From NCBI GenBank assembly GCA_024137785.1, contig JAHRHZ010000118.1, positions 1-63,600 on the forward strand: 63,600 nucleotides of DNA. Reading direction: 5' to 3'. Of the stretch, positions 14,701 to 63,600 are shown piece by piece; the first letter of the stretch is position 1; each line of letters opens with the position of its first letter. This stretch comes from Ginglymostoma cirratum (taxonomy: Eukaryota). Made by a program: the position numbers and the translations under genes. The notes under the pieces are model-generated. The model saw only the letters and a program-made list of their open reading frames with translations, was not told where the DNA came from and made no database searches.

Positions 14701-15639
14701 GCAAGACAGCTTTCTTGCTTGGCAATTGGGAAACTCTACTCCCTTTGTGATTGTAACTTGCATCACCATGAGAAATTGGGTTGCTGCCCCTGGAGACTCC
14801 AGAAATTGAAAATTAGTTTCCAGTACTGCATCAAGTAAAACATTTTAAAATTACTTTTATTTGTTTAAAAAAAACTGAGAAGTTGGGTGGAGGAAGGTCT
14901 TTCAGTAATGGTCAAGCATAATTCAATTAGCAAATGAATTTATTTGCCTTCTGATTATGTGTGTGAAGGCAAGTTCTTGCAGTGATGAATGTGCTGAGTT
15001 ATCAATGATGATTATCTAAGAGTGAGCGGAATTTGGAGGCAGGAGATTGAGTAAGAGATCATCACCAGAGGTCTGTCCAAATAGACAGCTCCTGTAGTTG
15101 GTGGCAGCTGATTTCTTCTGGGTATGTCAGGGCAAACTTCTCCTTTCATTCTTAATCCACCTGAAATCTAGAGGTTGCTTTTATCAAGAGTGGATTTAAT
15201 TGAAGTATTTAAAATCATGATTGGTCTCAATAAAGTAGATAGGGGAAACTACTTCCACTAGTGTTTGGGTCAGTAACCAAAGGGCATGGGTTTAAGGTAA
15301 TTTCAAAGACTCTGGCACAGGAAAACAGACTGAAAACAAACTCTTTGTGTGGCATCATAAACAATTTAATGATTATGTCTTAAGTATTTGGTGCGTGGAG
15401 AGAATATAACCGCTTTGACTTCCAAAATCAGCAGCAAGCTGAGGGTTAAACAGCTTAAACTAGTCCAAAGTGTAAAAAACTTTCTGCAGTTACAAATTGT
15501 ATTGTTCAATCCAGGTTTTACTCCTTTAATGTTTTGAGACCCTATTGGAAGCTCCACAGCTCCATCTACAGGTATGTGCTTTCTTAGCTTATTGGGATCA
15601 GAGTTAAAAGATTCAGACAAACGGGAGAGATAATGACTA

Positions 15640-17205
15640 GAGATAGTAGGAACTGCCGTTGCTGGAGTCTGAGATAACAAGGTGTGGAGCTGAACACAGC
15701 AGGCCAGGCAGCATCAAAGGAGCAGGAAAGCTGACGTTTCGGGTTTGGACCCTTCTTCAGAAATGGGGGAGTGGGAGGGGAAGGGGACTCTGAAATCACA
15801 GGAGAGAGGGGGAGGTGGTGATTGAAAGTAGATGGTGGAGCAGATAGGTGGAGAGAAGACGGACAGGTCAAGGAGGTAGGGATGAAGCCAATAAAGGTGA
15901 GTGTAGGTAGGGAGTTTGGATGGGGGGCGGGGTTGGTCGGTGAGGGGGGGAGGGGCAGGTAGGTGGGAGGGAAGACGGACAGGTCAAGGAGGCTGGGATG
16001 AGGCTAGTAGAGGTGAGGTAAGTGTAGGTGGGGGTTGGTCAGTGACATGGGAGGAGCAGATAGGTGGGAGAAAAGATGAACAGGTCAAGCATGCAGGGAT
16101 GGCGGCGGGGGGGGGATGCTGGTCTTGGGATGAGGTCAGGAGTGGGAAGATTTTGAAGCCTGTAAAGTCCACATTGTGTTGTAGGGTTTCCAGGCAGAAT
16201 ATGGGGTGCTGGTCCTCCAGTTTTCAGGTGGCATCATTGTGGCACTGGAGGAGGCCCAGGATGGACATGTCCAAGAAGTGGGAGGGGGAGCTGAAATGGT
16301 ATGCGACTGTGAGGTGTTGTCGTTTGTCACGAAACAAGCGTAGGTGTTCCACAAAGCAGTCTCCAAGCCTCCGCTTGGTTTCGCCAATGTAGAGGATGCC
16401 ACAACGGGAACAGCGGATACGGTATAACACATTAGCGGATGTACAGGTGAACACCTGTTTAATGTGGAAGGCTCTCTTGGGGCCTGGGATGGGGGTGTGG
16501 TTACAGGGAAAGGTGCCGAGGGTGGTGGGGCTAGTGGGGATGTGGAATGGACGAGGAAGTCGCAGAGAGCGGTCCCTCTGGAAGGCAGATAAGGGTGGGG
16601 AGGGAAATATATCCTTGATAGTGGGGTTGGATTGCAGGTGGTGTAAATGGCGGAGAATGATGCATTGGATCTGGAGGTTGGTGGGGTGATATGTGAGGAC
16701 AAGGGGAATTCTGTCTTTGTTGTTATTGCAGAGAGGGGGTGTGAGGGCTGAGGTGCAGGAAACGCAAGAGATGTGGTCGAGGCTGTTTTTGACCACGGTG
16801 GGGGTGGGGAATTGCGGTCCTTGAAAAACGAGGACATTTGGGATGTCTGGGAGTGGAATGCCTCATCTTGGGAGCAGATGTGGCGGAGGTGAAGAAATTG
16901 GGAATAGGGGATAGAATTCTTGCAGGAAAGTAGGTGAGAGGAGGTGTAGGCTAGATAGCTGTGGGAGTCGGTGGGCTTGAAATAGATATCAGTTTCCAGG
17001 TGGTTACCAGAGATGGAGACAGAGAGGTCAAGGAAGGAGACAGAGGTATCAGAGATGGTCCAGGTGAACTTAGGGTTGGGGTGGAAGTTGTTTAGTAAAG
17101 TGGATGAACTGTTCGAGCTCCTCGTGGGAGCATGAGCCGCCGCCGATACAATCATCGATGTAACGGAGGAAGAGGTGGGGGATAGGGCCAGTGTAGCTGC
17201 AGTTA
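15640..17205 (-). mobile_element. Penelope-like retroelement (RT + GIY-YIG), 5'-truncated and frameshifted, with terminal repeat
   Basis: FLRYIDDCIG, FLDLSVSI...DIYFKPTDSHSYL (RT); CTSANVLYRIRCSRCGILYIGETKRRL (GIY-YIG); terminal hammerhead-like core at 15733-15760. Confidence 0.92.
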
Positions 17206-18715: not shown

Positions 18716-18735
18716 CAGCAACAGTCCTGCATCAA

Positions 18736-18946
18736 GAGATAGTAAGAACTGTCGATGCTGGAGTCAGAGATAACACAGTGTTTGAGCTGGAGGAACACAG
18801 CTGGTCAGGCAGCATCAGAGGAGCAGGAAAGTTGATGTTTCAGGTCTGAAGAAGGGTCCCGACTCAAAACATCAACTTTCCTATTCCTCTGATGCTGCTT
18901 GACCCGCTGTTTTCCTCCAGCTCCACACTGTATTATCTCTATTTAT
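18736..18946. mobile_element. Fold-back Penelope-derived mini-element with 16-bp TSD
   Basis: Inverted arms of the Penelope terminal repeat; AACAGTCCTGCATCAA at 18720-18735 and 18947-18962. Confidence 0.85.
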
Positions 18947-20867: not shown

Positions 20868-21082
20868 TTATTCCTTCAAGCGATAGTTTGTCACATCAGC
20901 CTGTGCAGGATGGTCTCTGCTATTTCCAGCACCAACTTGATCACCACTCTGTTGTTCAGAAAGGATCATCGTGCAGATGAGAAAGCTCGGAAGGAAGAAC
21001 AGGATGAGTGATCCTGCTAGGATGAAGCCACCTGCAGTCATGAAGGATATGGTGTAACTTCCTGTTAGGTCCTCCAGAAACC
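20868..21082 (-). CDS. SLC16A11: SLC16A11/13-like terminal coding exon 4
   Basis: cccacttag|GG TTT CTG GAG GAC...GFLEDLTGSYTISFMTAGGFILAGS...RLKE*. Spliced CDS 205+144+789+215=1353 nt = 450 aa, no frameshift. Confidence 0.8.
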
Positions 21083-21942: not shown

Positions 21943-22160
21943 GAGATAACGAGAAGTAGAGCTGGATGAACACAGCAAGCTAGGCAGCATCAGAGAAGCA
22001 GGAAAGCTGACGTTTCGGGTCTGGACCCTTCTTTTCTGAAGAAGGGTCCAGACCCGAAATGTCAGCTTTCCTGCTCCTCTAATGCTGCCTGGCCTGCTGG
22101 GTTCATCCAGCTCTACGCCTTGTTATGTCAGATTCTCCAGCATCAGCAATTCCTACTATC
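21943..22160. mobile_element. Fold-back Penelope-derived mini-element with ~13-bp TSD
   Basis: Near-perfect inverted arms centred at ~22034; ATCTCTAAAGCAT at 21930-21942 and 22158-22170. Confidence 0.88.
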
Positions 22161-23514
22161 TCTAAAGCATTCTTTAAATAAGTTTTATCCATGTCATTTT
22201 TCTGCCTACAAGATTTATTTAACACTTGTAACTGGATAGTTCAAATTCATAAATTCAAAACTGGACAAATTAGAAACAGAAATCTGTTTTTTCCCCCTTC
22301 AGCACCTTTCACAGGATGTCCAAAAGTACTTGACAGCAAATGAACCACTTCTGAAGTGAGGTCACACAAATAGGTAAAATCATTTACTCATAATCCTGTG
22401 AGGGGTTTGACATCTTTTGACTTTAGTTATCTTTCCTAAAGTTTCAATTTGAACATGATGAAAGAATCTAGTGGTGGATTTGGGACATTCAGCCGTGCCA
22501 GAAAGAGACCCCAAGGTGGAGTGGGAGAAAATTGGATTCATTTGTCCACGGGCTGGAGAAACCCTGGCACTAAGTGGCCAATACCACTCCCAGGAAAGAG
22601 AGTCCTCGCCTCATCCAGGAAACTAGGCCCCACTGCCGCACGGTTCCTGCTGCTGGCCCCAATTGGAAAATTAAGCTCTAGGTGAAGATTTAGTGAGTGG
22701 TTTGGTAACACAGAAGTTGAATATTGCCAAAAGAAAAATGACACACTGGCAAAACCTTTTGTATTGCACTCATACAGCCTGCCTGTTGTTGCGATGTAAT
22801 GGCTATGTATCTGGCATCGCACCACACTGAATTTTATACATCAAATTACTCATTTATGCACTTGGAAAAACTTCTTTTAAAATTGAATTACTGCTGATAA
22901 ATATATTCATTTTGTTGTAATTTCATTGGCAGCATGTTCTAATTTTAAAACAATTATTTCTTGTTTGCCTAAATTCCAACCAGATTCTTTTAGAAACCTG
23001 AGATGTTATACTTTCTATGTGTCACATCATTCATCTATGGCACTTTCTTTAAATGGTTTTCTGCCTTGTTTGCAGGAGGGTTTTGGTCCAAAGTACTTGA
23101 ATGGTGTTCACAGATGCTGAGTTAGGGTCAGGTTATATTGCTGTACTAGATCCTGACAGCAGGAGAATTGACGTCTGAGCCTTATCAATCTTAATAAGAG
23201 AGTGCTTTATGATAATTTAGGGGAACTGAAGTGAACTGCTATGACATACTAGCAAATTGTCCAATAATGAACACAGAACAGCATTTCAAAGTTCAACCTG
23301 AATTTTTGTCTATTCTACTCTCATAGTATTTTCAAATGGATCAAATTAGCTCTTTCTTTTGCTCCTACAAAAATTTTCTCTATGATAGGGACGTCCCCAC
23401 TAATGGATCTCCAAAGGAGGTGAGGGTGTGAGATGATATGGGGCAGAAGGAGCCTGCTGCCCTTTCCAAAAGGGTCCTTCTATAGACTACCACTGGAGGA
23501 ACACCTCCATGAAG

Positions 23515-25750
23515 AGGAGTCATGGAGTCAAACAGTGCAGAAACAGACTCTTTGGTCGAACATGTCCATGCTGACCAAGTTTCTCAAACTAAACTAGTCC
23601 TGCTTGCTTGCATTTGGCCCGTATCCCTCTAAACCTTCCCTATCCATGGTCAAAAGTCACCCCAACACCAAGTTATAGTCCAACAGGTTTATTTGAAATC
23701 ACAAGCTTTCACAGCATTGCCCCTTGGTCAGGTGAAGTGAAGAAAGCACCCAGGCACAGACTTTATAATCAGGGATATCAAAAGATCATACAAATCGTGT
23801 GACTGGAATGTTGACAGGCCAAATAATAGGTCTCTTGCAGGTGATCAAGAGCGTCAGATGGTGTGAGTAAACTGTCTACAGCCGAATAACAAGAGAAGGG
23901 ATGACCTTTACTTCGATTAATTGAGGCAGAGAGATAATTACAGAAGATTAAAATTAATGTGGTGCTGGAGACAAACCAAATGACTGGAATAACCTGCTAG
24001 GTATTAGAGTCGCATACCAAGGGTCTAATCAAAGTAACAAGTAATCCAAAACTGTATGAACTAATTAAGGTAGTGGGATCATAACAACTCATCAAAATAA
24101 TGGTGTCAAAACAGGACAGTACAGAAGATTTTACAGGACAGCATGGTGGGGTCACATGTAGCGCAACATGAGCCCAAAATCATGGTTGAGGCCGTCATCA
24201 TGGGTACGGAACTTAGGTTTTAGTTTCTGCTCAACAATTCTGCATTGCTGTGTATCTCAAAGGCCGTGTTGGAGGACGCTTTCCCACAGATCAGAGGCTG
24301 AATGTCCTTGACCACTGAAGTGTTTCCCAACTGCGAGGGAACATTCCTGTCTGACAATTGTTACGTGGTGTCCATTCATCTGTTGTCTGAGCATCTGCAT
24401 GGTCTCGCCAATATACCATGCCTCAGGGCATCACTGCCTGCAGCGTATGAGGTAGACAATATTGGCTGAGTCACATGAGTATCTGCCATGTATGTGGTGA
24501 GTGGTATACCATCACACATGTGAACAGCACCCACCACGTACATGGTAGATACTCATGTGACTCAGCCAATGTTGCTTACCTCATATACTGTAGGCAATGA
24601 TGCCCCGAGGCATGGTATATTGACAGACCATGCAGATGCTAAGACAATGGATGAATGGACACCATGCAACAATTGCCATACAGGAATATTCCCTCGCAAT
24701 CGGGGAACACTTCAGTGGTAAAGGACATTCAGCCTCCGATCTTCGGGAAAGCGTCCTCCAACGCGGCCTTCAAGATACGCAACAACGCAGAACTGTTGAA
24801 CAGAGACTGATAGCCAAGTTTCGTACCCATGAAGATTGCCTCAACCGTGCTGTTGGGTCCATGTGGCGCTACAAGTGACCCACCATACTGTTCAGTAAAA
24901 TCTTCCTTACTGTTCTGTTTTGACACCATCACCTTGATAACTAGTTATGATCTCCCGACCTAATTAGTTTGTACAGTTTTGCATTACTTGTTACTTTGGT
25001 TAGACCCTCGGCAAGTGACTTTTATACCTAGCATATTATTCCAGTCATTTGATTTGTCTACAGCAGCATAGTAGTTTTAATTTTGTGTAATTATTTCTCT
25101 GCCTCATTTAATCGGATTATAGGCTATCCCTTTGCTTGTTATTCAGCTGTTGACACTTTATTTACACCATCTGACACTCTTGATCACCCACAATAGACCT
25201 GTTATTTGACCTGTTGATATTCCAGTCACACCATTTGTATGATCTTTTGATCTCTCTGATGTTAAGTCTGTGCCTGGGTGCTTTCTTCACTTCACCTGAC
25301 CAAGGGGCAGTACTCCGAAAGCTTGTGATTTCAAATAAACCTGTTGGACTATAACCTGATGTCATGTGACTTTTGACCTTGTCCACCCCAGTCTGACACT
25401 GGCACCTCCACATCTTTCCTATTTATGTACCTGTCCAAATGTCTTTTAAATGTTGTAACTTTACCTGCATTTACCACTTCCCCTAGCAGTTCATTCCACC
25501 TACAAACTATCCTCTGTGTGAAAATGTTACCCCTTAGGTCCCTTTTAAATCCATCTCCTCTCACCTTGAAAATATGCTCCCTAGCTTTGAACTCCCCCAT
25601 CCTATGGAAAAGACTTTTGCTATTCTCCTTATCTACGCCCCTCATGATTTTATAAACCTTTAGATCTCACCTAAACCTCCTATGCTCAAGTGTAAAATGT
25701 CTCAGCCTATCCAGACTCTCCCTATAACTCAAACCCTCCAGTACCAGCAA
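23515..25750 (-). mobile_element. CR1-like 3' fragment split by the Penelope palindrome
   Basis: 25414-25750: MRGVDK...RGNIFTQRIV..WNEL..EVV.AG...TFKRHLD; its 3' UTR continues at 23515-23648. Confidence 0.85.
23649..25413. mobile_element. 1.76-kb palindromic (inverted) Penelope-like element of a second family, nested in a CR1 3' end
   Basis: 23649-24505 is the reverse complement of ~24525-25380. Arms encode a GIY-YIG C-terminus (QTMQMLRQWMNGH...EHFS..GHS..DL...E..LI.KF.T). The interrupted CR1 continues on both sides. Confidence 0.88.
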
Positions 25751-26419
25751 CATAATATGGCATCCCAGTGTTATAGAAGGTCCTGGGAATTAGCTCCTTC
25801 ATTTGTCCTTGCAATGGCTTAAACATCCATCTTACACAGCTGGATGCCTAACTCAAACCTGGTATCAACATTCTTAAGATGACCTTGGATGCAAATGTTA
25901 ACTCCCTGAAGCTATGCTTTGTTATGTCCAAATGGAACAATATTATTTTCAGGAAAAGCTTTCAGCTATTATGACTAAATAATCCATCGATTCAATTTAT
26001 AAACCAACATTCTATATTGGTTTATGTTTGAATTCGAATGACTTTCGTAATAAATTTCTTATTTTTCCATGAGTTTGTCTCCTGAATTATGTGACTGGGG
26101 TCTTAGACAATCCTGGTCAGTTGCAATGTAGGAAATATGTCAACCAACATAGCAATGCCTGGAAAACAGCCATGCGATATTTCAATTACTGGATTATAGG
26201 ACTGGATCACTAGTGATATTACCATTATGTCACTGCCTGCCCCAAAATCTGTGAAGAAACTAATGAGCAGGAGTAGGTTATTTGGTCCATTAAGCGTGCT
26301 CTGATTGCGGCCTTAACTCCACTTCCCTCTGCCCTCCCATAACCTTCCTTTGTTGATCAAAAATCTGACCAACTCAGCTTTGAATATATCCACTGATTTC
26401 TGGATCATGGTTATAGCCA

Positions 26420-26920
26420 CAGAGTCATGCAGCACGGAAACAGACCCTTCGGTCCAACCAGTCTGTGCCCAGCATAATCCCAAACTAAACTAGTCTACCT
26501 GCCTGCTCCTGGCCCATATTCCTCCAAACATTTCCTATTCGTGTACTTATCTAAGTGTCTTTTAAATGTTGTAATTGTGCTGACATCCACCACTTCCTCA
26601 GGAAGTTCATTCCACAAGCGAACCAACCTCTCTGTAAAATATTTGCCTCTCATGTCTTTTCTAAATCTCTCTCTTCTCACCTTAAAAATGTGTCATGAAA
26701 TCCCCCATCCTAGGAAAAAGACACCTATCATTAACCCTATATATACCTCTCATAAATTTATAAACCTCTATAAGGTCACCTCTCAACCTCCTATATTTCA
26801 GTGAAAAACGTCCCAGCCTATCGAGACTTTCTTTATAACTCAAACCTTCCAAACCTGGCCACAACCAGGTAAATCCTCTAGCTTAATAATAACCTTCCTT
26901 CAATTGGGTAACCAGAGCTG
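26420..26920 (-). mobile_element. CR1-like LINE 3' fragment
   Basis: LEGLSYKESLDRLG.FSL..RRLRGDLIEVYK; WNELPEEVV...TFKRHLDKY. Confidence 0.88.
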
Positions 26921-28578
26921 AGGAATAGAATTCCATAGACCAATGACCTCATTAGAGAAGGAATTCTCTTTCATCTCTATCCTGAATTGGATTCTTTATT
27001 TTGAACCTGTGACCCTAATTCTAGATTCCCACATGAGTGGAAATATCCTTCTCAGCACCTACCCTGTCACATCCCCTCAGAATGTTATATGCTTCAATAG
27101 GATCGCCTCTCTTGCTCAAACTAAGGCCCTGTCTGCTTTTTCCCTAAGTGGATGTAAGATTGCTTGTTGCTATTCAAGAACAGGAATGTTTTTCCAAGTG
27201 TTCTGGCCAATATTTATCATGCAATTAAAATCAATAAAAGCAGAGTGTCTTCTGTCTTCATGTATAAGGATCAGGGTATGGACTTCTTTTATCCACTTCT
27301 GGGCAAAGTCATGCAGTGGTTTGCCATTTCCTGTGTAATGGTTGACCACGAGATTCACCCATCTTACAGCCTGCTTTCAGTTTTACTTAGAAGGATTTAC
27401 TGGCTTAAAATCAGCCTGTTTTGAAATCACCTTCTGTGGTCAATGTGTTCTAGTATTCCACTCAATTCTGGAGTTTCTGACTAAGTGGTAGGGATGCTAC
27501 CCACTGTTCTGCAAGACCTATAAAGACAGATTATCCATAATATCACTGTTTTTTGTGGAATCTTGCTGTGCATAAATTGGGTGCTGTGTTTCCTACATTA
27601 CGATAGTAAATTCAGTTCAAAATGTACTTCATTGGCTGTTAAGCAATTTTGTATGTTCTCAGGCTCCGAAGTCATGAATATTGCAGTAGAGTCCTTTAAC
27701 TGTGGCTTCAAAAGCAGGCCACATAAACACCCAAATGTCACAACTACGCTCCCAGGCCTAAGCCAAATACGAGCAGAGCCACAAGCTGTCTGTAAATGGC
27801 AGTACTCCTGGCAATGTTTATAAAATTTACTTTTTAAAGATCATTAAATATCGAATAGCTCAGCTCCGTCTGCAGATCAGCTGGTTAGGAGATGACTACT
27901 GAGTTATGTAGTTCATAAAAATTGCCTTTTCGAACTTCCTATGTTAGCCTACCTTAGACAGGGATTAGTAGAGGGTGTCATTATTGCCTTTAGTTATTTT
28001 TCCCAAGGAAAGGAAAGTTGTCAGAGTTCCCACTCCTGTTTTGATAACCATTACCATTTGTTGCATTTGGACACCACATGGGGACATGACCTGTGATGTC
28101 TCTACTGGTTGAGATGGTTGCAGAATGATCAGCCTTGCACAGTAAGAATTGTATAGAAATCACAGTACAGGAACCGGCCATTCAACCCAACAGATCTACT
28201 CTAGTGTTTTTGCTCCACGAGTTCCCTCACATCCTGTTTCATCTCATTCTATCAATATGTCTTTCTGTTCTTTCTCTGTTGTGTGTTTAGCTAGGTGTTC
28301 CCTTAAATGCATCTCTAAAATCACCTGAAGCAGTCCATGAAGTAGCAATTCCTATATTCTCAGTTTTCTTTGGGTACAGAAGTTTCACTAGAATTCCTTC
28401 TTAGACTTGTTAGTGAATATCTTATATTTAAGAGCCATGAATGATTACTTAGATGAGGCAGTGGATTTTGTCAAAACTCTTTAGAATTGTATCCCAATAG
28501 AAGTCAACATACCTGGTGAAAGTGATAATGTAAATAAGAACAGAGGGGAATGAAACACAGAACAAGACATTTTATTAC

Positions 28579-29367
28579 CTGACAGGGGAGGCCCAAGGAG
28601 TCCGCCAATACTTAGGAGCATCAGAAAGAGCCCAGTTGCATTGAGAATCCGTCCAATTCCTACGATTTCTGGGAGGGTGGAGAAGAAGAGTGGGGCAAGG
28701 CCTCCAGAACAGAAGCCATAAAAAAAACTGAGCCCTACTAGACTATAGTACGTGCTCCCAACAGGAATGAGGAGAAGGCTGATTCCAGTGAGAATACTCC
28801 AAAGGAATAACATGTGGATTTTTCGGATCAGCTTGAGATCTGCCAGCCAACCAGAAAATAGCCGTGCAACAGTCTCAGAGATGGCAGTGACAGACAACAG
28901 GAAGGCAGCCTCATAATCACTCAATCCAAGATTCTTTCCATGGGCCACCAGATGGATATAGGGGACAAAGTATCCTGTGGTCATCAGGGTTACTGCAAAA
29001 CTGTACACCATAAAGCCTCGGTGCAGGAAAAGGGTCAAATCAAAGGCAGACGTCACTTTGTCGCAACACTCGGTACTTTTCTTCACATTTTCAGGATGTC
29101 CCCTTGATTCAACAAGAAGGTCCTCTTGGATGGTGATGGGTCTAAGCAGGGCTGCACAGACACAGAGGTTCAACATCATTGCAGATAGGATCTGGATAGC
29201 CCCACGCCATCCATACCTATTGATCAGGAGCTGAAACAGTGGAGAGAAAAAGAACGAGGCAACTCCCACTCCTGTGAACGCTAAACCGGTCGCCAAGGCT
29301 CTACGCCTCTTGAAGTATCTGGAGATCATGGCCATTGTGGGGGTGAAGACCAAAGCCCAACCAAAAC
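28579..29367 (-). CDS. SLC16A11: SLC16A11/13-like coding exon 3 (789 bp)
   Basis: tgtccag|GT TTT GGT TGG ... YFKRRRALATG...WRGAI...GYFVPYIH...NATGLFLMLLSIGGLLGPPLS, donor TCAG|gtaata. ATGLxxMLxS resembles SLC16A11 more than SLC16A13. Confidence 0.82.
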
Positions 29368-30195
29368 CTGGACAGCAAAGCAAGACACAATGAAGCATGT
29401 TCTCTCGATTAGAGTGTAGCCATTACATAGTCACCAAGATCTCAAAACTTGAATTCCTCACCTCCCACTGTCTTCCCTTTGTCATTCAGGCATTTAAAAC
29501 CAAAGCTTGGCGTGATGTCATCACTGCTTTTCAAACTATACCAACTTCTTTTCTCACTCTTTCAAATGTGAATTGAATAAATATTTTAAGAAGAAATGAA
29601 TTGAATGGCTTGGGGTAAAGAGTAACTGACTAGGACTAATTCAATAGCTAGCAAAGAACTAGTACAAGCGTAATAGGTCTTATAGCTTCCTGGGCTAAGA
29701 TTCTACGATGAGATGTCATGTGATGAAAAGTCATGTGACCTCCAGAAATCTTTCCAATTAGAGTTAGTAAAGTAGTGGAACTGTACAAGAAACTTATCAT
29801 TCATGGTGAATGGACATTTGATGGATACAGGGTTGTGTTTGGCTATGATGGTCTTCCAAGTGGGTTAGCCAGGCAATATTCAATATCAAAGCTCTGTATG
29901 CAAAATGGCCATTTGGGCAAAAAAAATTGGAGGACAGCCACTGCCTGTGGAATCCATTTCCAGGTGAGAGAGTCACATTTTTAAGGAGGAAATAATTGGA
30001 GAGAGACAGATAATCACATATCCAGGATGGACAATACATATTGCAGCTCTCACACATTTCTCCTTGTTTGAATATAACCCATCATGAATGTTGAGGGTTT
30101 GTGCAACTGCAGAGTTAACAGAGAGTTAAGAGAACAGAAATAAACTCAGATAAAGAAATCTGACAAAGGGCTTACATTAAACACATTGTGCTGAC

Positions 30196-30339
30196 CTGTC
30201 AGAAGTCCAATGGAGAGGTACATGTGCAGAAGGTTCTGTCCAAATGAAGCTGTAAACATTCCCAGGAAAGCTAAAATTGCACCAACCATCACCACAGGGC
30301 GAGCTCCATAGTGCATCCCAAATACACTCCCCACTGGAC
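30196..30339 (-). CDS. SLC16A11: SLC16A11/13-like coding exon 2 (144 bp)
   Basis: tttacag|GT CCA GTG ... SPVGSVFGMHYGARPVVMVG...MYLSIGLLT, donor ACAG|gtcagc; phases match both neighbours. Confidence 0.82.
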
Positions 30340-31052
30340 CTGTAAATTGAAACAAAATGGGAAATTCGGTCTGTATCTTTAAAAACTATAGACAGGCACA
30401 AAACAATAAATAAGGCTAACGGATATGAGGTCTTGTAGTGTAGCCTCTAAGCCAGAGGCTCAGGTTTCGTGTCCCTGTCCGGCAGCTGACGACCAAAGAA
30501 TGTAACTGTCAAATCCCACATCCTTCCAACAAATGCTTATGGCAGGCAGTAAGAAGATAAAAATTTCACAGTCAATCATATGATGGAATGGAAATTGAAG
30601 TTTCTGCCATCACTATCCATGCTCCAGACTATTCATGAATCTAAAAGTATATGTTGCCACAGGACTACTTGGCTGCAAAGTTGTTGTGGATGAGATTGGT
30701 GCCAATAGAATGAGGTTTGATCACTATTTTACTGGGCTGATTATGGAATCTGCTGCCTTGACCTAGCACTGGTGGATGTTTTGATGCTGTAGGTCAGACC
30801 TTCCTTTGGGCAGAGAACTCAAGAAGAGCAAAAGGGCTAACAGTTTGTTAGCACTCAATTCAGGGAGGTTTGAAATTTTTGTTACAGCCCTGTGACCACA
30901 GTTTTTGTTTTAATCTTTCATGGTATGTGAGTGCTGCTGGTAAGGCCAACATTTGTTGTCCATCCCTCATTGCCCTTGAATTGATGAGTTACCTAGGCCC
31001 TTTCAGAGGGCAGACAAAAGTTAACTACATTTCTGTGGATCTGGAGTCATAT

Positions 31053-31890
31053 GCAGCCCCACCACACCCGGCACATTTCCCTGCAACCGCAGGAAGTGCT
31101 ACACCTGCCCCACACCTCCCCCCTCACCCCCATCCCAGGCCCCAAGAAGACTTTCCACATCAAGCAAATGTTCACCTGCACATCTGCTAATGTGGTATAC
31201 TGTATCCGCTGTTCCCATTGTGGCCTCCTCTACATCGGGGAAACCAAGCGGAGGCTTGGGGACCACTTTGTGGAACACCTAAGCTCGGTTCGCACTAAAC
31301 AACTGCATCGCCTAGTCGCGAACCATTTCAACTACCCCTCCCATTCCTCAGACGACATGTCCATCCTGGGCCTCCTGCAGTGCCACAATGATGCCACCCG
31401 AAGGTTGCAGGAACAGCACCTCATATTTCGCTTGGGAACCCTGCAGCCCAATGGTATCAATGTGGACTTCACAAGCTTCAATATCTCCCTTCCCCCAACC
31501 GCATCCCAAAACCAGCCCAGCTTGTCCCTGCCTCCCTAACCTGTCCTTCCTCCTACCTATCCCCTCCTCCCATCTCAAGCCCCAACCGCATCTCCAACCT
31601 ACTAGCCTCATTCCGCCCCCTTGACCTGTCCGTCCTCCCTGGACTGACCTATCCCCTCCTTAACTCCCCACCTACACTCATCTTTACCGGCTCCATCCCC
31701 GCCTCTTTGACCTGTCTGTCTCCTCTCCACCTATCTTCTCCTTTATCCATCTTCTATCCACCTCCCCCTCTCTCCCTATTTATTTCAGAACCCCCTTCTC
31801 CTCCCCCATTTCTGAAGAAGGGTCTAGGCCTGAAACATCAGCTTTCCTGCTCGGCCTGCTGTGTTCATCCAGCTCTACACCTTGTTATCT
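31053..31890 (+). mobile_element. Penelope-like element 3' part (GIY-YIG + terminal repeat)
   Basis: ORF 31051-31539: CTSANVVYCIRCSHCGLLYIGETKRRL...EQHLIFRLGTLQPNGIN; same family as 15640-17205. Confidence 0.92.
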
Positions 31891-32708
31891 CGTATGCAGG
31901 CTAGACTGTGTAAGAATGGCGGGTTTACTTAAAGAACATTAGTGAATAGGATAGATTTTTATGACTATCAGCAATACATGCTCACCATGATACTTTTTTT
32001 AAAATTCCAGATTTTATTGAATTCAACTTGGATAGTTTGCCATGGTGAGCATTGACCTGGGGCTCTTTATCACTATTACGCCAGTACTTCCTCTCCTCTG
32101 GAGCACTGCATTCAGTTCTGCGCATCACTGCATTATTCTTGAAGAGGGGATGCAGTGCAGAATCACCACAATAATATTGGGCTAAAAGCATTGAGTTATG
32201 AAGACTTTGTTGCGTAGTGTTGCCTTGACTGTAGAAATTTAAGGATGATCCAATTGTGGTAAGGTGATTGAAAGATTTGATTGGATTGATAGAAATGATT
32301 TTGACTAGTGGTAATAGTCCTGGACAAGTAAGTGGAGGCTTAAATCAAAGTCAGGCTGCTCAGGGATGATGTCAAGAAGCACTTTTTCACATAAAGACTA
32401 ATTTCCCCTCAAAAATCTGTTGAGGTCAATTGAAAATGTTGAAACTGAGATTAATAACTTATTTTTGTTCAGTAAAGGCATTAAAGCATAAGGAACTAAG
32501 TTGGGTAAATACATTTAAGAAACATATCAGCCACGATCTAATTTAACGTTAGAATAGATTTGAGAAGTTAAATAGCCTCCTTCAATTCATGAGTATCCCT
32601 CCAGAAAACAGTAATTGGGCTATTTGACCTCACCAGGTCTGTTGAGGAGAGATGTTCTTTTAAAAGGATGTAAATTTGAAGAGCAAGAAAAGAGGAACCA
32701 GGACTAAC

Positions 32709-36721: not shown

Positions 36722-36820
36722 AGAGATAAAACGTTGTGGAGCTGGATGAACACAGCAGGCCAAGCAGCATCAGAGGAGCAGGAAAGTTGACGTTTCGGGT
36801 CGAGACCCTTCTTCAGAAAA
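36722..36820 (-). mobile_element. Solo Penelope terminal-repeat fragment with hammerhead-like core
   Basis: CTGAAGAAGGGTCTCGACCCGAAACGTC on the minus strand, 36816-36789. Confidence 0.85.
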
Positions 36821-36959
36821 GGGCAGGAGCTGTTTTTACAGAATTGGTGAGGTTAGAGCTGAGGCACATCGAAGATGAACATAAACTAACAGGACAGCCA
36901 ACTCGAGGACACTAAAACTCACCAGGAGCCTTCCTCCCTCATTCTGCTCTGTTCAGTAC

Positions 36960-39889: not shown

Positions 39890-42800
39890 AGGGTAAACAG
39901 AACATTTTGGGGTATTTAGTATTTAGTAAGGACAGATGAAAAGGAAATACTGTGGAGTTGAATTGCTGGTTAGAGAGGAAATTTACGCAATAGTGAGGAA
40001 GGATATTATCTTCAATGATGTGGAATCTGTATGGGTAGAGCTCACAAATACCAAGGGGCAAAAAACATTATTAGCGGTTGTATATAGACCCCCAAACTGT
40101 GGGATGATGTTGGGAATGACACTAAACAGGAAGTTGGAGTTGCATGCAGTAAAGGAACATCTGAAGTTCTGGGTGACTTTAATCTGCATATGGATTGGGC
40201 ATATCAAATTAGTAATAATACCACAGAGGAGGAATGTCTATACAGAGGAGTGTATAATGGATGGTTCTCTGTACCAATACATTGAGGAACCAACTAGAGA
40301 ACAGGCCATCCTAGACTTGGTATTGTGTAATGAGAAAGGAATAATTGGCAGTCTAATTATGCAAGGCCCTCTATTGACCATAATATGATTGAATTCTTCA
40401 TCAAGATGGAGAGTGACATAGTTGATTTTGGAGACTACAGTCCTGAATCCAAAATGTGGAAAATACAGTGACATGAGGCTGTAGATATGAGGCTGTGATA
40501 GATTGGGAAATATTACTTAAAAGGATGACAGTGGAAAGGCAATGGCAAACATTCAAATGGCATGACAATTGTTCATTCCTTTCTGCGTAAAAGTAAAACA
40601 GGAAGAGTGGCCAAACCATGGTTTACAAGGGAAATTAAATAGTATTCAATCCAAGGAAGTGGCATGCAAGTTGGCCAGAAAAAAAAACAGCAGACCTGAA
40701 AGAGGGCAGTGGTGGAGTGTTGTTTTTCAGACTGGAGGTCTGTGACCAGCAGTGTGCTGCAGGGTTCGGTGCTGGGTCCACTATTGTTCGACATTTCTAT
40801 AAACTATTTGGATGAGAATTTAGGAAGCATGATTGCAGATGACATCAAAATTGGTGGTAAAGTAGACAGTGAGGAAGGTTATCTTAAATTACAAAGGGAA
40901 CTTGATCAATAGGGCCAATAGGCTGAGGAGTGGCAAATGGAGTTTAATTTAGATCAATGTGACATGATCGCATTTTGGTAAGATGAACAAGGGCAGGCTG
41001 TGGGGACTATTGTAAAACAGAGGGGTTCAAGTATGTAGTTCATTGACAGTTCCATCCCAGGTAGACTGAGTGGTAAAGAAGGCATTTGGTTCTCATGCCG
41101 TCATTGTTCAGACCATTGAGCATAGGAGTTGGGATGTCATGTTATGATTCTATAGGACATTGGTGAGGCCACTTCTGGAGGGCTATGGGCCAAATGCAGG
41201 CAAATGGGACTAGTTTAATTTGTGAAACTTGGCATGGATGAGTTGGACTGAAGTCTCTGTTTCCATGCTATTTGACTGTATGACTCTGAGTGGGAGCAGT
41301 TTCGAATTCAGCAAAGGAGGATAAAGGGATTGATTAAGAAAGGAAAAATAGAATACGCATGTCAGTTCGTGGAGAACATAAAAGATGATTATATAAGTTT
41401 GTATAGGTATATGAAGAAAAAAGATTGAAAAGAAATATAGGTCCCTTACAGTTAGAAACAGGGGAATTTATAACAGGGATCAAAGAAATGGCTCTTCAAC
41501 TAAATATATATTTCAGTTCTGTCCTGACAAAGGGTTTTGGCCCAAGCATTGACTTTTCTCCTAGTTGGGTGCTGTCTGACCTGCTGTGCTTTTCCACCTT
41601 CGCATTTATTGACTCTACCTTCCAGCATCTGCAGTCCTTTATATCTCCTACATACTGGTATTGTTGGGGAACACAGGGTTTAGTGAAGGAAATCATTATT
41701 AGTAGGGAAATAGTGTTGGGAAATTGATGGGATTGAAGGCCAATAAAACCCCAGGGCCTGATAATCTACATCCCATTGTACTTAAATTGTCTGAGAAATA
41801 ATGTCATTTTCCAAGATTCTGTTGACTCTGGAACAGTTCCTACAGATTAGAGGAGAGGGTACTGGATGTGATTTATTTGGATTTTTAGAAGGCTTTCAAC
41901 AAAGTCCCACATAAGCGAATATAATGTAAAACTAAATCATATGGGATTGGGGGTATTCAGATGGCTAAAAACTGGCAAATAAGAAGCAAAGTAGGAATAA
42001 ACTGGTCTTTTTCTGTGGAACATTGCAGACTTCAGTGTTAGGACTCTGAGTATTAGTGATTTAGATGAGGGAACTAAATGTAAAGTTTCCAAATTTGCAG
42101 GCAACACAAAGCTGTGTGGAGGATGCAGACATGCTCCAGTGGGATTTGGACAGGTTGAGTGAGTGGGTAAATGAATGGCAGATGTAGTATAATATGGATA
42201 AATTTGAACTTATCCACTTTACTCGTGAAAACAAAAAGTGGACTGGCCGAATGGTTGTTAATTGAGAGAGGGAATATGCGACCAGACCTTGGTATCCTCC
42301 TATAACAGTTGCTGAAGATAAGCATGTAGATGTAACACATAGTTAAAAAAAAAGCCAAAGGTATGTTGGCATTCTTAATGGGGGAATGAGAGTACAAAAA
42401 CAGTGTCTTACTGCAAATAATTAAGCCTCATTCCACACCTGGAATATTGTGTGCGGTTTTGATCTCCTTAACTGAGGGAGAGTGTTCTTGTTATAGAGGG
42501 AGTGCAGCAAAGGTTTGCCAGACTGATTCCTGTGATGGCAGGGCCAACTATAAAGAGAGGTTGAATTGGTTAAGGTTATGTTTGGTGAAGTTCAGAAGAA
42601 TTAGGCAGGGTGGGGATGTCTCATAGAAACCTATAAAATTCTATCAGTACTAGATATGGTAAATGCAGGAAGGATGTTCTTGATGGCAGGGGAGTCCAGA
42701 ACCAGGGATCACATTCTGAAGATACAGGGCAAGCCATTTAGGACTGAAATGAGAATGTTTTTCACCCCAGAGACTGGGGAGTCTATGGAGTTCAATGCTA

Positions 42801-45018: not shown

Positions 45019-46649
45019 TCTGGACTAGTGTGACACCTCTGCCAGACCAGATGGAAAAAGAATAGTTGACCTGGAGGCATAAAGAAAACTTTCACAACCT
45101 TAGGATGCTCCAAAGCATTTCACATCCAATGATGTAGTTTTGCATTGTAGTCACTGTTGTCATGTAAGAAACGCAGCAGCCATTATATGCACAGTAAGTT
45201 CTCATAACCAATAATGAACTTAAAACAAAGTCAGCTTTAGTAATGTTGATTGAGGGATACATATTGGACATAACTTCCTTCCTGTTGAAGTAGTGCCATG
45301 TAAGATTTAACATTCACCTGAGAGGACAGATGAAGTTTCTGCTTAACATTACAATTAAATGATGATATCTCACTCTTTGCAACATTGGAGTGTCAGTTTC
45401 AATGCTTATATTCAGTCTCTGGAATGGGACTCGAAGCCACAACTTTTTGATTCAGAACCAAGAGTGCTAGCCACAGATCCTCCGCTAACTCTTGGGCAAG
45501 AAATGTTTTATAGTTTCTTTTCTTTCTTTACAACTCTGTGAAGACAGTCATTGTATCCTTAACATGGCAGAAGTTCAAAGGCTTAGCTTTACAATATTTG
45601 AGTTGACCTCCGTTGGCTGCAAAATGGTCGGATTTCTTAGATTCTATTGAAAAATGCTGATTCTATTCATATCTTTGATCACAAACCTAGCTGTGAACAG
45701 GAACCTTCATAGCAAGGTAACCAATCATTATTTTCAGATTCAGTTTGTTTTGGATCATTTTCTGGGTAAGGGCATAAGAAAAATTAAACACAAAATTTCA
45801 ATAAGACCATTGAACCTGACCTGTAACTTAATATTGTCATTGAAGCCTATCCATCTGGTATTCCAACTCGCATGGAAGCCAAATCACCCCTATATTCTGA
45901 TACTCCTATTGATGCCCGTCTGTCTACTGCCCTAACTATTACAGAATCATGGAGTCATACAGCACAGAAACAGATCATTTGGTCCACCTTGTCCATGCTG
46001 ACCAGGTTTCCCAAGCTAAACTAGTTTCAGACAAAAACAGAAATTGCTAGATAAACTCAGCAGGTCTGGCAGCATCTGTGAAGTTAATATTTTGGTTTGA
46101 GTAACCCTCAGAACTGCCCCATTTGCCTGCACTTGGCCATATTCTTCTGAACCCTTCCTGGTCATCTACCTGTCCAACTGACTTTTAAATGTTATTACTG
46201 TATCTGCATCTACCACTTCCTCTGGCAGTTAATTTCACATGTGAACCACCCTCAGTGTGGAAAAAAGTTGCCCCTCAGGTCCCTCAAATTTTTCTCCTCA
46301 CCTTAAAATTATGCCCTCTAGTTTTGAACTCCCCTACCCTTACAAACCCATGACTATTTCCATCAAGAAGGACAAATGTAGTAGATACATGAAAACACCA
46401 CTACCTCCAAGTTCCCATCCAAGGCACTCGCCAACCTGACTTGGAAATATAAAGCTGTTCCTTCACTGTTGCTGGGTAAAAATCCTGGAATTCCCTCCCT
46501 GATGAAATTGTGAGTGAGCCAACAGCAGATGGACTGCAACAGTTGAAGAAGGCAGCTTAGCATCACCTTCTCAATGGCAACTAGGCATGGGCAATAAATG
46601 CTAGCCAGCCAATGATGACCACATCCCATGAATGAATTAAAAAAAAGAC

Positions 46650-47450
46650 TGCATGAGCACCATCTCCAACAAACTCAATCCCAGGCAGGCCAAAGCTGCC
46701 CTGGTTGACTGGCACCACGTCCACAAACATTTAGATAATTTACAAAGAAGATATTCTGCCACTGTCGGAGAACCCACTGATGACGTCACATCCGCCACTG
46801 CCGGGTACCCCACTTCCGGGACAGCGAACGCCGCCGCTGCTGAAACCACCGCCTCCATCTCCGAAACCAACACCACAGACACTACCGTCATCGCTGCTGC
46901 CGCTGCCGCCGCCGACGCCGCTCCGCCCACCGTCGAAGCCGACATAACACCCACCGCCGACGCAACTCCGCCCACTGCTGACGTAACGCCACCCACAGCC
47001 GACGCCGACAACGCTCCGCCCACTGCCTCCACAGCCAGCAGCTTCAGAGGAGACAGCAACACTGAGCCCTGCTGAGTGTTCACCATCCCCCCAGACCTCC
47101 CCCTCACTGAGGACGAACGGTCAGTCCTCAGTAAAGGGCTCACCTTTGTCCCCCTCCACCCACATATCAACGAATACTGCTCACGCTTGGATATTGAGCA
47201 GTTTTTCCGCCGCCACGCTTACTTCTCCAACCGCGAATCTAACCCTCCCTCTACTGACCCCTTCTCCCGCCTCCAGCACAAGCCCCCTCCTGGACACCAC
47301 CCCAAGGCCTCTTACCCTCCCTCGACCTCTTCATCCCCAACTGCAAGCATTTCTGATGAAGGGTCTAGGCCCGAAACGTCAAGTTTTCCTGCTCCTATGA
47401 TGCTGCTTGGCCTGCTGTGTTCATCCAGCCCCACGCCTTGTTATCTTGTA
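46650..47450 (+). mobile_element. Internally deleted Penelope-like element: Ala/Thr/Pro repeat region + RT N-terminus fused to terminal repeat
   Basis: VFTIPPDLPLTEDERSVLSKGLTFVP...DIEQFFRR is a typical PLE pre-RT motif; CTGATGAAGGGTCTAGGCCCGAAACGTC at 47353-47380. Confidence 0.8.
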
Positions 47451-50400: not shown

Positions 50401-51764
50401 GTTGTCTTTCCCTTTACCTTAGGCTCTCTACTGTTGTGGCAATGGGAATAGATTTTCTGTTCTGTCCAGATCCATCATGATTTTGGGTGTGTTTGCAGAG
50501 AAAGCTTCATCCAGAGGCAGATTGCTGATTGGTTTGTGCAATAAGGCTCAGTTGTGGAGGCCAAAAGTCACCAACATGACAACAATTCACTGATTGGCTC
50601 TTTGTGAGGTGGACATCTTGACTGAGTGAACAATACAGGGAAGAAGCCTCCGGAATGCAGCAGTGAAAGGGTCTATCACTGTCAGTGATATAACTAAAAC
50701 CTGGAAGATAGCAAGCTGTTCTTTCCCATCAGTTGTGATAAACTGTTGCCTCTAACCAGTGACTGAAAACTATAATAAGTGTGCCAATTGTATTATTTCT
50801 TCAGAACAGTGAAAGGATCTGGATAAGAAGATTAGAAAACAGAGGTCTTCGAAACAGCAAAATCAATGCCTCATTGAATCTTGAACAAAAACAGAATTGC
50901 TGGAGAAGCTCAGCAGGTCTGGCAGCATCTGTGAAGGCAAAAAACAGAGTTAACGTTTCGGTTCCTCATGATGGGTTTTTATTTACCTCATTGAATCTTG
51001 TGGGCTGGTGCTATTGAACTATGTTTCTCTAGTATTTTCCCTCCTCCCATAATATCTATATTTGTTTATTTGTCAAGGTCTTGTCTGCATGTCTGTATAG
51101 GAGTTTTGGGGAGGAGATGGTGTAGTGGCATTGTTGTTAGACTCTTGATGTAGAGACCCAGCTAATGTTCTGGTGACCCTGGGTTGAATACGGCCAAGGT
51201 AGATAGTGGAATTTATATTCAGTAAAAGAAGTTTCTGGAATTACGAGTCCCATGATGCCCATGAAACCAATGTAGATTAAGAAAAAAGAAATAAGAGGAT
51301 TGTTGGGAGAGGGGAAGCAGCTAATACAGGTTAAGAAAGAGAAAGGAAGAGGGGAAACATTGAGAGAAATGTGTGACTGCACCAAACTGTTCCTACACAC
51401 ATGTACACAATTCCCTGGAAGCTGCTGTGCTTCTTTTAACCTAACACAAGTACCTCAGTTTTTCCAGATACTCACACAGGTCCTTAGTTTGTGTCTGCAG
51501 AACAAGGGATGTTTTTTCAGTACATTGCTGATAACTGTCTTTAGGTGGCTGCAAATGGAGCATGAAAGGACTACACAACAGCAAAGTGCTGACCTGCAAT
51601 ACAATAGGGCTGGCTGTTGGCACCTTGAAGGTGTGTTTTAGGTGTCTTGGATGTACTCATGCTTGAAGTGCACTTGATAAACTGGATCTGATTTTTGAGT
51701 TAGATCATTGATCCTCCCCTCAAGCCAATCATTTATGGACAAGAAATGCTATAAAAGATCATAT

Positions 51765-57809: not shown

Positions 57810-58575
57810 CTATAATAAATCACAGATTATAATAAACAGAGCATAATAAAAACACAATTTAAGAGTTGGCATTCGTAACTTCAATAGGTGTCAACTGAAT
57901 AATTATTTATCTTGATAACAATACACCAACTTCAATGAAGCTGCTGTAGTTATTGAAACGTCTCGTGAGTGTTCTGCATTAATGTCATCGGGCAAATAGA
58001 CAGTTAATGTGTAGATAAAAGCAATGCAGTATGATGTCAACTTGCATGTATCTAGCCATGTTAAATCAGTGAAACAATCCATAGCACTACAGAAGAATTT
58101 AGCACTGACTGAGTGATCTGAGATGGTATTATGATAGGTAACCAAAAGCTATGCCAAAGAGACTTAGAGATGACAAAGTGAAGAGACTAAATGGCCTTTT
58201 CCTATTTCAGTATCTCTAAACCAAAAAAAAAGTCACCTTCTTCCTCTTCTGCCATCAGAATGGAGGATGAAAAATGCTTCTGTAACTAATTTTTACTGTA
58301 CCTGCCTTGGGTATTTAATGATAGGGAGGTGTAAAGAGACCTTTATTCTGTATGTAACCCATGCTATACTGGCCAGAATTGTTTTTGATAGGGACAGTAT
58401 AGATAGAGTTTTAACAGTATCTAATCCTGTGCTGTACCTAGCCTGGGAATATTTGATGGGAACAGTGTGCAGGGAGCTTTAGTCAAATGTCTAACTCGTG
58501 CTGTACTGACCGTTCTTTCTGATGGTGACACTGTTGAGGGAAGTTTGCTTTGTATCTAACTCTGCTATACCTGTG

Positions 58576-58697
58576 ATAACAAGCATGGGGCTGGATGAAC
58601 ACAGCAGGTCAAGCAGCATCATAGGAGCAGGAAAACTTGACGTTTCGGGCCTAAACCCTTCATCAGGATTCTCCAGCATCTGCAGTACCTTTTATCT
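58576..58697. mobile_element. Penelope-derived mini-element (inverted junction) with 16-bp TSD
   Basis: CTCTGCTATACCTGTG at 58560-58575 and 58696-58711; intact hammerhead-like core on the minus strand, 58666-58639. Confidence 0.85.
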
Positions 58698-58975
58698 CTG
58701 CTATACCTGTGCTGTGAATATTTGATGGGACAGCATAAAGGAATATTTTTCAGTGTTGTTTTGAGCTGTCTAAATCTGGCTGAAGTTTTTGAACAAAAAA
58801 AATTGCTAGACATGAGATAGCAAATCATGATCTTTCACTATGAATCAATTTTGGCTTCTCATTTAGAACTAGCCACATTTCCTTTTTAAATGACTTAAAT
58901 AACTTATGGTGTCAAATCAGCAGGCATGATCAATTTTGCAGCGTTAGATGCATCAAATGCCATTGCCTGCCTTAC

Positions 58976-59085: not shown

Positions 59086-60826
59086 CTAGGAAACAAATCA
59101 TGGAGCCGAAGAGAAGGAATGTAAAGAGGGAACAAAAAAAATCAATGGTTAGTCCAACTATCTAGGATATGAATCACATTTTTCAATGATTTGAGGAGCA
59201 GGATCTTCACATCAAGTACATGTAATTCAGCACAGAGTTATCCTTCTGTCTTTGCATGATTTGACCAGATTACCCACCTAATATACACTTGCCCAATGTT
59301 TTCATTTTTGTTCAGTCATGAGGGATAATATTTCAGGAAGCAATCTGGGCTATTTTACCTTCCACTCTCGGGAATCCCTGTAGAAAAATACTCACTTCCT
59401 ATTAGCTCTCATTAAGAAGGTACCCATTGATGTAAATCACATACACACACATGTTAAAGCAAGTACCACTACAGTTTTTAAAACAAAATTATTAGGTCAA
59501 GATTTCAAGTGAAACGGAACTGTATGGCATTGCTTAATCAAGCTATGGTAGATTTGTTTGATTTATTGTTGTCACATGTACCTAAGCACAGTGAAAAGTT
59601 TTGTTTTGTTGGCAGTACAGGTAAATGATAGCAAACAAGAACAAACAGATCATAGGGCGCTTAGACAGAGCGAGGTGTACAAGGTTACGCCTGCACAGGT
59701 GATGCACGAAGCAAGATCAACAGTAGACTTGAAATTAGAGAGGTGCATTCAGCAGTCTAATAACAGCAGGGAAGAAGCTGTTCTTGAACCTTCTGTATCT
59801 TCTGCCTGACAGAAGAGGTTGGAAGAGAGTATTACCGGGGTGGGAGGGATCTTTCATGAGCATTGATGAGATTGTGGAGCAGGAATTATTGTTGGATTGC
59901 TCTTGTTTCAGCTGTGCCTAGATGGCAGCACTGAACTTAAAGTCAAAAGGCTGGGGTCAGACATGTTAAACACTTAATTGTACAACAAAAACAGAAATTG
60001 CTAGAAAATCTCAGCAGGTCTGGCAGCATCAGAGAGAGAAATCAGAGTTAACATTTCAGGACCAGTGACCCTCCTTCATAACTGATGGTAGCTGTGCAAT
60101 TCAATCCGGCATTCCTGTGTACTATTGACGAATTACTGCACTGCCAGAGGTGCCATTGTTTGGATGAAACAGTAAACCAAGGCCCTCTACCTTCTCAGAT
60201 GGCTGTTAAATCACATGGCACTATTGGAACAAGATCTCTGATATTTTGGCCAACCTCAATCTTTAAATACTACTGCCAGAAATATAGACTGTCTCGGTAC
60301 TTATCTCATATGCTTGTTTGAGAGAGTTTGCTGTTCATAAATAGGCTCCTGTGCTTCTCTCATTGCAACAGGAACCACTTTAAAAGTAATTAAATAACTC
60401 TGAAATGCGTTGAGATATCCTGTGGACATTAAAATCATTATAGAAATGCAAGTTCTTTCTCCAGTGAAAGGTCACTAAACTTGATACATTAAGTAGTGGC
60501 CTCCAGTACTATAAAATTGTAATTTTGTGTCTGAGACACCAAAGCAATATATCCTTCCTTAGTCTAGTGATTTTATTTACATCTGCAAACCTCTGCAACC
60601 TCAACATGGTAAAAGTTAGGCAATATCTGCATTCATTCATTGTTTCCGCACTTTTCCAAGGAATTTTAAAACTGAATAAACTATAGAGCTTTTTAAAGGT
60701 TTTCAATCTATATATTGCTTAGTAAGAGAAACATAATCAATGAAGCCATCCCTTCATTGAATAGATGTAGAGCTATATTGAGCAAATATCACTCTCTCCA
60801 CCGAATATAATGAATTCCAATTTTAC

Positions 60827-63292: not shown

Positions 63293-63474
63293 TTAGAAAC
63301 ACAGGAACATGTGAAGGCTACTCACCCTGTTCCACCATTCAATGAGATCATGGCTAATCTGTGGCCTAACTCCATTTATCTGCTTTTGGCCTGTACCCCT
63401 TAATAACATTTGGTTAACAAAAAAATTGTCTGTCTCAGACTTAAAATTAACAACTGATCTTGTATTCACTGCTT

Positions 63475-63600
63475 CAGAGATAGTATGAACTGCAGATGCT
63501 GGAGAATCTGAGATAACAAGGTGTAGAGCTGGATGAACACAGCAGGCCAAGCAGCATCAGAGGAGCAGGAAGGCTGACGTTTCGGGCCTAGACCCTTCTT
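63475..63600 (-). mobile_element. Penelope terminal repeat (runs off the window), inserted in a CR1 3' fragment (63295-63472)
   Basis: Same sequence family as 15640-15760. Confidence 0.85.

Follow-up and report, generated by a model that had tools for sequence, protein, structure and literature searches.

The short hammerhead-bearing repeats scattered through the genome of the shark Ginglymostoma cirratum are probably decaying stubs of a Penelope-like element (PLE) whose terminal repeat (pLTR) carries a minimal type I hammerhead predicted to cleave itself, the stubs having been made by reverse transcriptase (RT) running off an uncut transcript. We analysed a stretch of 63,600 nucleotides (contig JAHRHZ010000118.1, positions 1 to 63,600), here called the window, for which an initial annotation had proposed minimal hammerheads of Penelope origin. 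That origin was borne out, the cores sitting in the pLTR of a PLE, and the motif at 47353-47380 (CUGANGA, helix II, GAAA and GUC) is present as stated, reading CTGATGA-A-GGG-TCTAGG-CCC-GAA-ACGT-C on the plus strand. Positions are numbered with C3 of CUGANGA as +1 and the preceding base as 0, which puts the predicted cut at +28/+29 in family A (helix I arms ATTT/AAGT). The focal copy comprises the following features:

46758..47344, plus strand: ORF fragment of the same element, lying ahead of the focal core and 91% identical to unit positions 743-1333
47349..47352, plus strand: helix I 5′ arm ATTT, whose first bases are the start of about half of the short genomic copies
47353..47380, plus strand: minimal type I hammerhead core (CUGAUGA, extra A, GGGU/GCCC, GAA, ACGU, C17), read from sequence
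after 47380, plus strand: predicted cut, from sequence
47381..47447, plus strand: helix I 3′ arm AAGT, plus tail to the first tail end (+94)

Helix II, previously given as a 3-bp GGG/CCC stem, is actually 4 bp (GGGU/GCCC) with a 4-nt loop. The palindromic ACGT helix III without a loop is as had been described, and so is the weak pairing of helix I, which has three Watson-Crick pairs and one G-U in the focal copy, two contiguous pairs in the copies at 15760 and 36816, and none at 58666. The focal copy is composite, a ~590-nt ORF piece (743-1333) being followed by 3 foreign bases and then by -4 to +94, and the joining of this piece to -4 of the hammerhead may reflect a template jump or an internal deletion.

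A fuzzy 28-mer search of the window returned exactly the four intact cores that had been claimed, at 47353 (plus) and at 58666-58639, 36816-36789 and 15760-15733 (all minus), two of them with N7=A (CTGAAGA), which still satisfies CUGANGA. The degenerate copies reported near 18846, 22036, 31812 and 41524 likewise exist, with G12>A at 18846, C11.1>T and G16.2>A at 31812, G8>A at 41524, and at 22036 an intact catalytic core with C15.2>T; the one reported near 63575 is also there, and its CUGA end would lie beyond the window. These copies are arranged as follows:

58575..58703, minus strand: young copy in an intron of an ACAP1-like gene, sense, with core 58666-58639 intact
36724..36823, minus strand: stub whose core 36816-36789 (N7=A) is intact, with a 2-bp helix I and a 9-bp target-site duplication
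15639..17196, minus strand: older 5′-truncated element with RT end, GIY-YIG, 3′ UTR, core 15760-15733 and tail to +128
31054..31895, plus strand: 5′-truncated element with GIY-YIG, 3′ UTR and decayed core 31812-31839
21943..22163, both orientations: head-to-head pair of a direct stub from -2 (core 22036-22063) and an inverted stub from +6, forming a long hairpin
18735..18939, both orientations: older head-to-head pair, direct core 18846 with G12>A
41524..41647, plus strand: old stub that begins at C3 and has its core broken by G8>A
63474..63600, minus strand: copy sense to the ACAP1-like gene, ending at +6 with the window

In the two head-to-head pairs the inverted partners (21943-22031 and 18735-18850, minus strand) have no CUGA. 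An Rfam scan of the window at E<=1 matched no hammerhead family and gave four matches, all miRNA-like hairpins, which are the inverted (head-to-head) stub pairs. Both pairs would form hairpins of 70-140 nt in any read-through RNA, burying the ribozyme, and their scores as miRNA precursors fall short of the gathering thresholds.

Complete units were found by a genome search with the focal upstream ORF piece, after which 40 stretches were retrieved. They consist of a hammerhead, a 138-nt spacer, an ORF from +167, a C/T-rich 3′ UTR, a second hammerhead and a tail, as in units L061 (3,546 nt, with an 11-bp target duplication) and L047 (3,568 nt), both of which have a hammerhead at each end. A further locus, L042, shows an inverted 5′-truncated copy typical of EN+ PLEs, so that between them these three loci display the EN+ traits of partial tandems (pLTR), inverted 5′-truncated copy, optional tail of 30-40 nt and target duplication. 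The single ORF encodes a protein (P0001) with PF00078 (RVT_1) at 306-449 and a C-terminal PF01541 (GIY-YIG) at 680-757, its nearest named relatives being carpet shark proteins (93% and 89%). Its linker, CNRRKCYTC, conforms to CX4CxxC, and the available text of PMC8557442 gives a CX2-5CxxC RT-EN linker motif as the mark of Neptune and Nematis elements; the shark linker, which is also common to Nematis, puts the element putatively in the Neptune clade.

Giant stop-free ORFs spanning several units, of up to 8,772 codons, were rejected, being N runs open in all six frames (4 loci examined), and the real ORFs have about 780-1,070 codons. The AUG within the core (CUGAUGA) begins a frame of just 15 codons, and copies of the N7=A subfamily do not have it. 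At L061 (minus strand, 6315-6150) there are two upstream ORFs, one of 15 codons from the core AUG and one of ~39 codons from +45 that stops 2 nt ahead of the main AUG, a spacing that suggests reinitiation. We also noted that the sequence after the cut site in family B resembles a 3′ splice site, with a branch-like CTGAT, a stretch of pyrimidines and a CAG immediately before ATG (L156, minus strand, from 6027), and that family A has a splice-acceptor-like TTTCAG 24 nt upstream of the core; these could possibly belong to a pLTR intron, as in other PLEs.

Six families emerged from a descriptor that made no demand on helix I, and their helix I arms are ATTT/AAGT, AGTT/AACT, AGTC/GACT, TCAC/GTGA, CTGCA/TGCAG and AGCT/AGCT. 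The catalytic core CUGANGA...GAAA...UH is unchanged across all six, and is found in the four intact window copies and in that at 22036; helix III is ACGU in families A, B, C, E and F and AGCU in family D, the family with arms TCAC/GTGA. The covariation analysis that had been proposed gave a positive result, in that the helix I arms covary across the six families, with 22/24 and 20/24 cells Watson-Crick, values reached by 1 and 4 of 720 permutations in a test using one copy per family, hand-picked for an intact 5′ arm. MAFFT put family D one column off, and pairs were therefore counted anchored on the core. Together, the constant core and the covarying helix I arms show that the hammerhead fold is selected in master elements. 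Conservation of the core over its flanks, also anticipated, is seen numerically among copies (1.6% against a flank mean of 8.9% and median of 4.1%) in an alignment-biased comparison, and because local alignment favours matching 5′ edges we relied on the cross-family test instead.

Other members of these families were encountered beside the focal one. Family B is about as common as family A in sampled DNA, with 109 readable copies, and has left decayed stubs, absent from the initial annotation, on the minus strand of the window at 46031-46110, 50884-50965 and 59985-60094. A 1.9-kb inverted repeat at 23489-25362 represents a single insertion from family D, likewise Penelope-like, with a GIY-YIG remnant at 24624-24875 and hammerheads at 25297 (plus) and, as its mirror, near 23732, both broken by G8>C. 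Elsewhere in the genome (G000:C87:27750057-27750226), a 35-nt unit consisting of the hammerhead alone (-3..+31) is repeated head to tail at least five times, a natural multimer suited to dimer cleavage tests.

Within family A (241 copies), the only non-CpG variants of the 28-mer that are shared lie at N7, in loop II and at one U-G/U-A pair; the extra base after A9 is A in 147/150 and G10.1 is G in 148/152. The catalytic CpG change G12>A occurs in 30/186 family A copies and the non-catalytic CpG change G16.2>A in 37/196, and since the former is as frequent as the latter, inserted copies decay neutrally, without selection. The description 'ribozyme-bearing family' is thus apt for the master elements, and not for most of the dispersed copies, which are decaying stubs with this rate of G12 loss. 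Helix I is weakest in family A, having four pairs (one of them G-U) in the youngest subfamily and two contiguous pairs in older ones; it is of 4-5 bp in families B-F and, with its one G-U, in the focal copy. Moreover, in the three copies that keep helix I the hammerhead fold lies 4-6 kcal/mol above the minimum-energy fold. Self-cleavage activity in family A is therefore uncertain. Individual inserted copies are most likely inert. The hammerhead was the minimum-energy fold in 0/11 copies, and no ACGU dimer appeared when two strands were folded together; the folding program does not model the core, so these results carry little weight.

The density claimed earlier, about one per 7 kb and very high copy, is supported by a sample not chosen for the element (the window and 48 stretches), in which 45 tail-bearing pieces in 333,693 readable bases amount to 1 per 7.4 kb, or by extrapolation ~590,000 pieces in the whole genome. 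Exact intact cores number 81,651 genome-wide (4.36 Gb) and exact matches to a 31-nt tail piece 156,717, with 0 in the control for each. The bare pattern CTGATGA-N5-30-GAAAC is weak by itself (2 matches against 0.35 expected, 5/100 shuffles reaching 2), and the full descriptor gave 188 matches in 1,229,543 readable bases, a set in which many loci were picked because they hold elements, against 0 in the reversed sequence.

The stubs proved informative in where they start. From 334 alignments, 241 had a tail anchor, and 205 of these had readable 5′ flanks (36 dropped). Fifty-three of the 205 read through seamlessly into the 3′ UTR and 152 end in -39..+50; among these 152 short family A copies, 73 have 5′ ends at -6..+2 (mode -2), only 3 at +27..+31 and 4 at -39..-7. 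A blind subset gave 18/26 ends at -6..+2, and the stop rate per base was 0.062 at the boundary versus 0.003 and 0. Family B, of different sequence, has 52/97 ends at -6..+2, the same distance, and stops at GTT. The boundary is weak in family D (5/11) and was not seen in family E (0/1), where 6/7 copies read through. At the boundary, 31/53 junction copies have an extra T, 34/53 keep A(-3) and some re-copy CTGA, and 5 of the 12 copies with an exact target duplication (71 tested) abut that duplication bluntly at TTT. Ends also gather, to a smaller extent, at the T-run +33..+37. The 3′ ends form two clusters, one at +92/94 and one at +126/130; what was counted at +81 and +114-118 reflects alignment breaks at subfamily differences. 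RNA reads (60,749, from one unstranded run dominated by passenger copies; a second run gave 38 reads) point to the same place, 11 of the 15 best-supported joints having an end at -6..+2 (276 further joints exist); there was no spliced joint among those 15, and no pile-up of read ends in that run, including at the cut site.

Because the stubs hold the whole ribozyme, the RNA from which they were copied must have been uncut or rejoined, and a hard stop with added bases would most simply be explained by the template's 5′ end. In our preferred reading, run-off on an uncut transcript, RT would start in the tail, 65-100 nt past the predicted cut site, and run off the uncut 5′ end of a transcript beginning likely 2-4 nt before CUGANGA; A(-3) sits in an initiator-like context in families A and B. 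A G from a capped transcript is confounded at this boundary, G standing before ATTT in 6,392 of 15,443 non-C cases, A in 6,219 and T in 2,832 (by difference). A cap-derived G did not emerge clearly: G is enriched over T, but about half of 20 inspected G cases were re-copied CTGA, inverted partner or target.

A boundary made in DNA, by an endonuclease cutting at ATT or by a joining process favouring T-runs that anneal to AT-rich targets, would be in keeping with the preference of the anole enzyme for ATT (available text of PMC11167929) and with the lesser end cluster at +33..+37. It seems to us quite improbable, since 0/53 passing copies end in -39..-16, a stretch containing TATTTATTTC, family B stops at GTT, and several duplication-flanked copies join without microhomology. 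Copying from an antisense or self-primed template (PMC3846280), with the boundary lying where that process ends, is suggested by the head-to-head pairs with palindromic junctions that are common here; sense RNA with internal initiation nevertheless reproduces the tail in vitro (PMC11167929), and the ends of solo stubs that have target duplications but lack an inverted partner fall at this position too, which makes this explanation very improbable.

Not every cDNA stops. Of those reaching +2, 57/130 pass the boundary, and such passage needs tandem templates, homology-guided transfer across -3..+28, or circles. In the circle model of PMC4209133, both repeats are cut, the unit RNA is ligated to a circle and reverse transcribed for more than one round, and the pile-up at -2 would be RT stalling past the ribozyme. 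That model would accommodate complete insertions exceeding one unit, the seamless read-through of 53/205 copies and, as occasional cut but unligated RNA, a small excess of starts at +29. As the source of the boundary, however, we regard it as unlikely, because a circle has no end at -2, the stop is sharp and at the same distance in two families of different sequence, and the extra T and re-copied CTGA are as expected at a template end. Starts at +29 are moreover few, being 1,010 among 93,113 copies, compared with 338 at +31 and 266 at +25. Of these, 902 are genuine truncations where a pair of neighbouring positions would predict 444, about twofold over a flat expectation, and cut-site starts amount to 1.1% raw or 1.9% corrected, the excess of ~1% being partly attributable to fold-back of the AAGCTT palindrome or to A microhomology. 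Thirty +29-start loci were inspected: 3 were not truncated, 2 were unreadable, 9 were inverted-partner junctions, 4 had duplications (with 1-3 nt of microhomology in 3) and 12 were other cases. As cut-site starts are about twice the flat expectation, some templates may be cut.

A non-homologous, end-to-end jump onto a ribozyme-cut 3′ end, which predicts core|TTTCTGA duplications, found no support: the genome has 132 short duplications with a 0-30 nt spacer, and among the 100 listed the majority retain AAG or AGC beyond the cut site. Given that cut-site starts are few and that this jump is unsupported, the ribozyme would likely do its job in the 3′ repeat of the master elements, its activity being low and assisted. 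Activity of that kind has been measured for related motifs (PMC4209133, PMC11167929, available texts). A possible, if doubtful, extension is that the element RNA runs from the first base of the hammerhead to the cut site of the 3′ copy, the ribozyme then forming a 31-nt terminal redundancy like retroviral R; stubs would be strong-stop DNA, and full-length copies would arise via strand transfer across the ribozyme. If true, the Penelope hammerhead would gain a defined job and more-than-unit-length cDNA would be explained without circles, on evidence to be read in fossil copies that number hundreds of thousands in each shark genome.

Sense copies in ACAP1 introns had also been claimed. An ACAP-family gene does lie on the minus strand, and the 58666 copy is intronic, between two of its exons, and sense; the copy at 63575 is also sense and ends with the window, and the gene is best called ACAP1-like, on the strength of one exon that scores best against ACAP1 (8e-17), over ACAP2 (8e-14). 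Downstream lie two convergent genes, at 8371-10400 (plus) and 20871-30385 (minus), which from their translation we take to be monocarboxylate transporter-like (SLC16-like). That such sense copies are active ribozymes influencing host pre-mRNA processing is an idea to which we give hardly any credence. Both copies in this gene are sense, 81,651 intact cores exist and copies are transcribed (60,749 reads); however, 2/2 in sense is chance-level, copies lose G12 as fast as neutral CpG decay would have it, the cut site shows no pile-up of read ends, and single minimal motifs went uncleaved in vitro (PMC4209133, available text). The 58666 copy itself starts at C3 and is preceded by an inverted tail piece (+95..+132) that replaces the helix I 5′ arm, so that helix I is lost (first pair C.A). 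It is probably inert, and an effect on ACAP1 is unlikely because it has neither helix I nor a dimer partner. Nothing in the window copies within the ACAP1-like gene pointed to host function.

As a sequence feature the shark hammerhead is ordinary. The function of hammerheads in PLEs is, however, stated to be unclear (PMC8557442, available text), and a young shark family that is very abundant, includes near-intact copies and has a 5′ boundary both sharp and countable suits its study, as well as the question of how PLEs make more-than-unit-length DNA; both are approachable from genome data and an existing in vitro system. The new point is the fixed 5′ boundary of the stubs, which is not described in the available text of PMC4209133. 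Our literature search turned up nothing on hammerheads of shark PLEs or on PLE stubs with a fixed start, most subscription papers and Repbase lying outside that search.

The comparisons that follow draw on the available parts of the papers cited. Animal non-LTR retrozymes are PLE pLTR-derived, have type I hammerheads and are present in one cartilaginous fish (Li et al. 2026, 10.64898/2026.07.22.740005), but are tandem repeats with at least two complete hammerheads, whereas the window copies are solo or head-to-head; no head-to-tail arrangement with at least two complete hammerheads was found in the window, and 132 short direct duplications exist genome-wide. The shark motif instead joins the minimal hammerheads (min-HHR) described in pLTRs of metazoan PLEs by Cervera and De la Peña (2014, PMC4209133), a known motif in a known element class that is notable here for copy number. 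It is like them in its core, in the extra base between 9 and 10.1 and G10.1-C11.1, in the palindromic 15.2/16.2 without loop 3, in its pLTR location and in occurring mostly as solo copies from truncated elements. The helix I of 4-5 bp described for them is seen in shark families B-F and, with one G-U, in the focal copy, and is partly mismatched in family A. Differences are that shark helix II is 4 bp only, and that the 81,651 exact cores compare with ~4,000 in coelacanth and ~9,000 in Xenopus; sharks are not named in the text or supplement file 2 of that paper, as available.

The second comparison is with Poseidon PAc of Anolis carolinensis (Frangieh et al. 2024, PMC11167929), which likewise combines RT and GIY-YIG with a pLTR hammerhead. 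In vitro, its RT initiates at two internal sites of the RNA and favours RNA that is uncut, while the hammerhead depends on the protein. The two tail ends in shark resemble these two internal start sites, and the systems are alike in uncut RNA as template and in having no RNA-seq ends at the cut site. They differ in that the PAc ORF starts within the hammerhead, whereas the long shark ORF starts at +167, and in the Neptune-type cysteine linker of the shark protein. Finally, Penelope of Drosophila virilis has an internal TATA-less promoter that initiates within the pLTR (Schostak et al. 2008, PMC2377424), which is what the shark boundary would imply; in the fly, a 75-nt intron lies between the start and the hammerhead region, whereas the putative start in shark is the first base of helix I.
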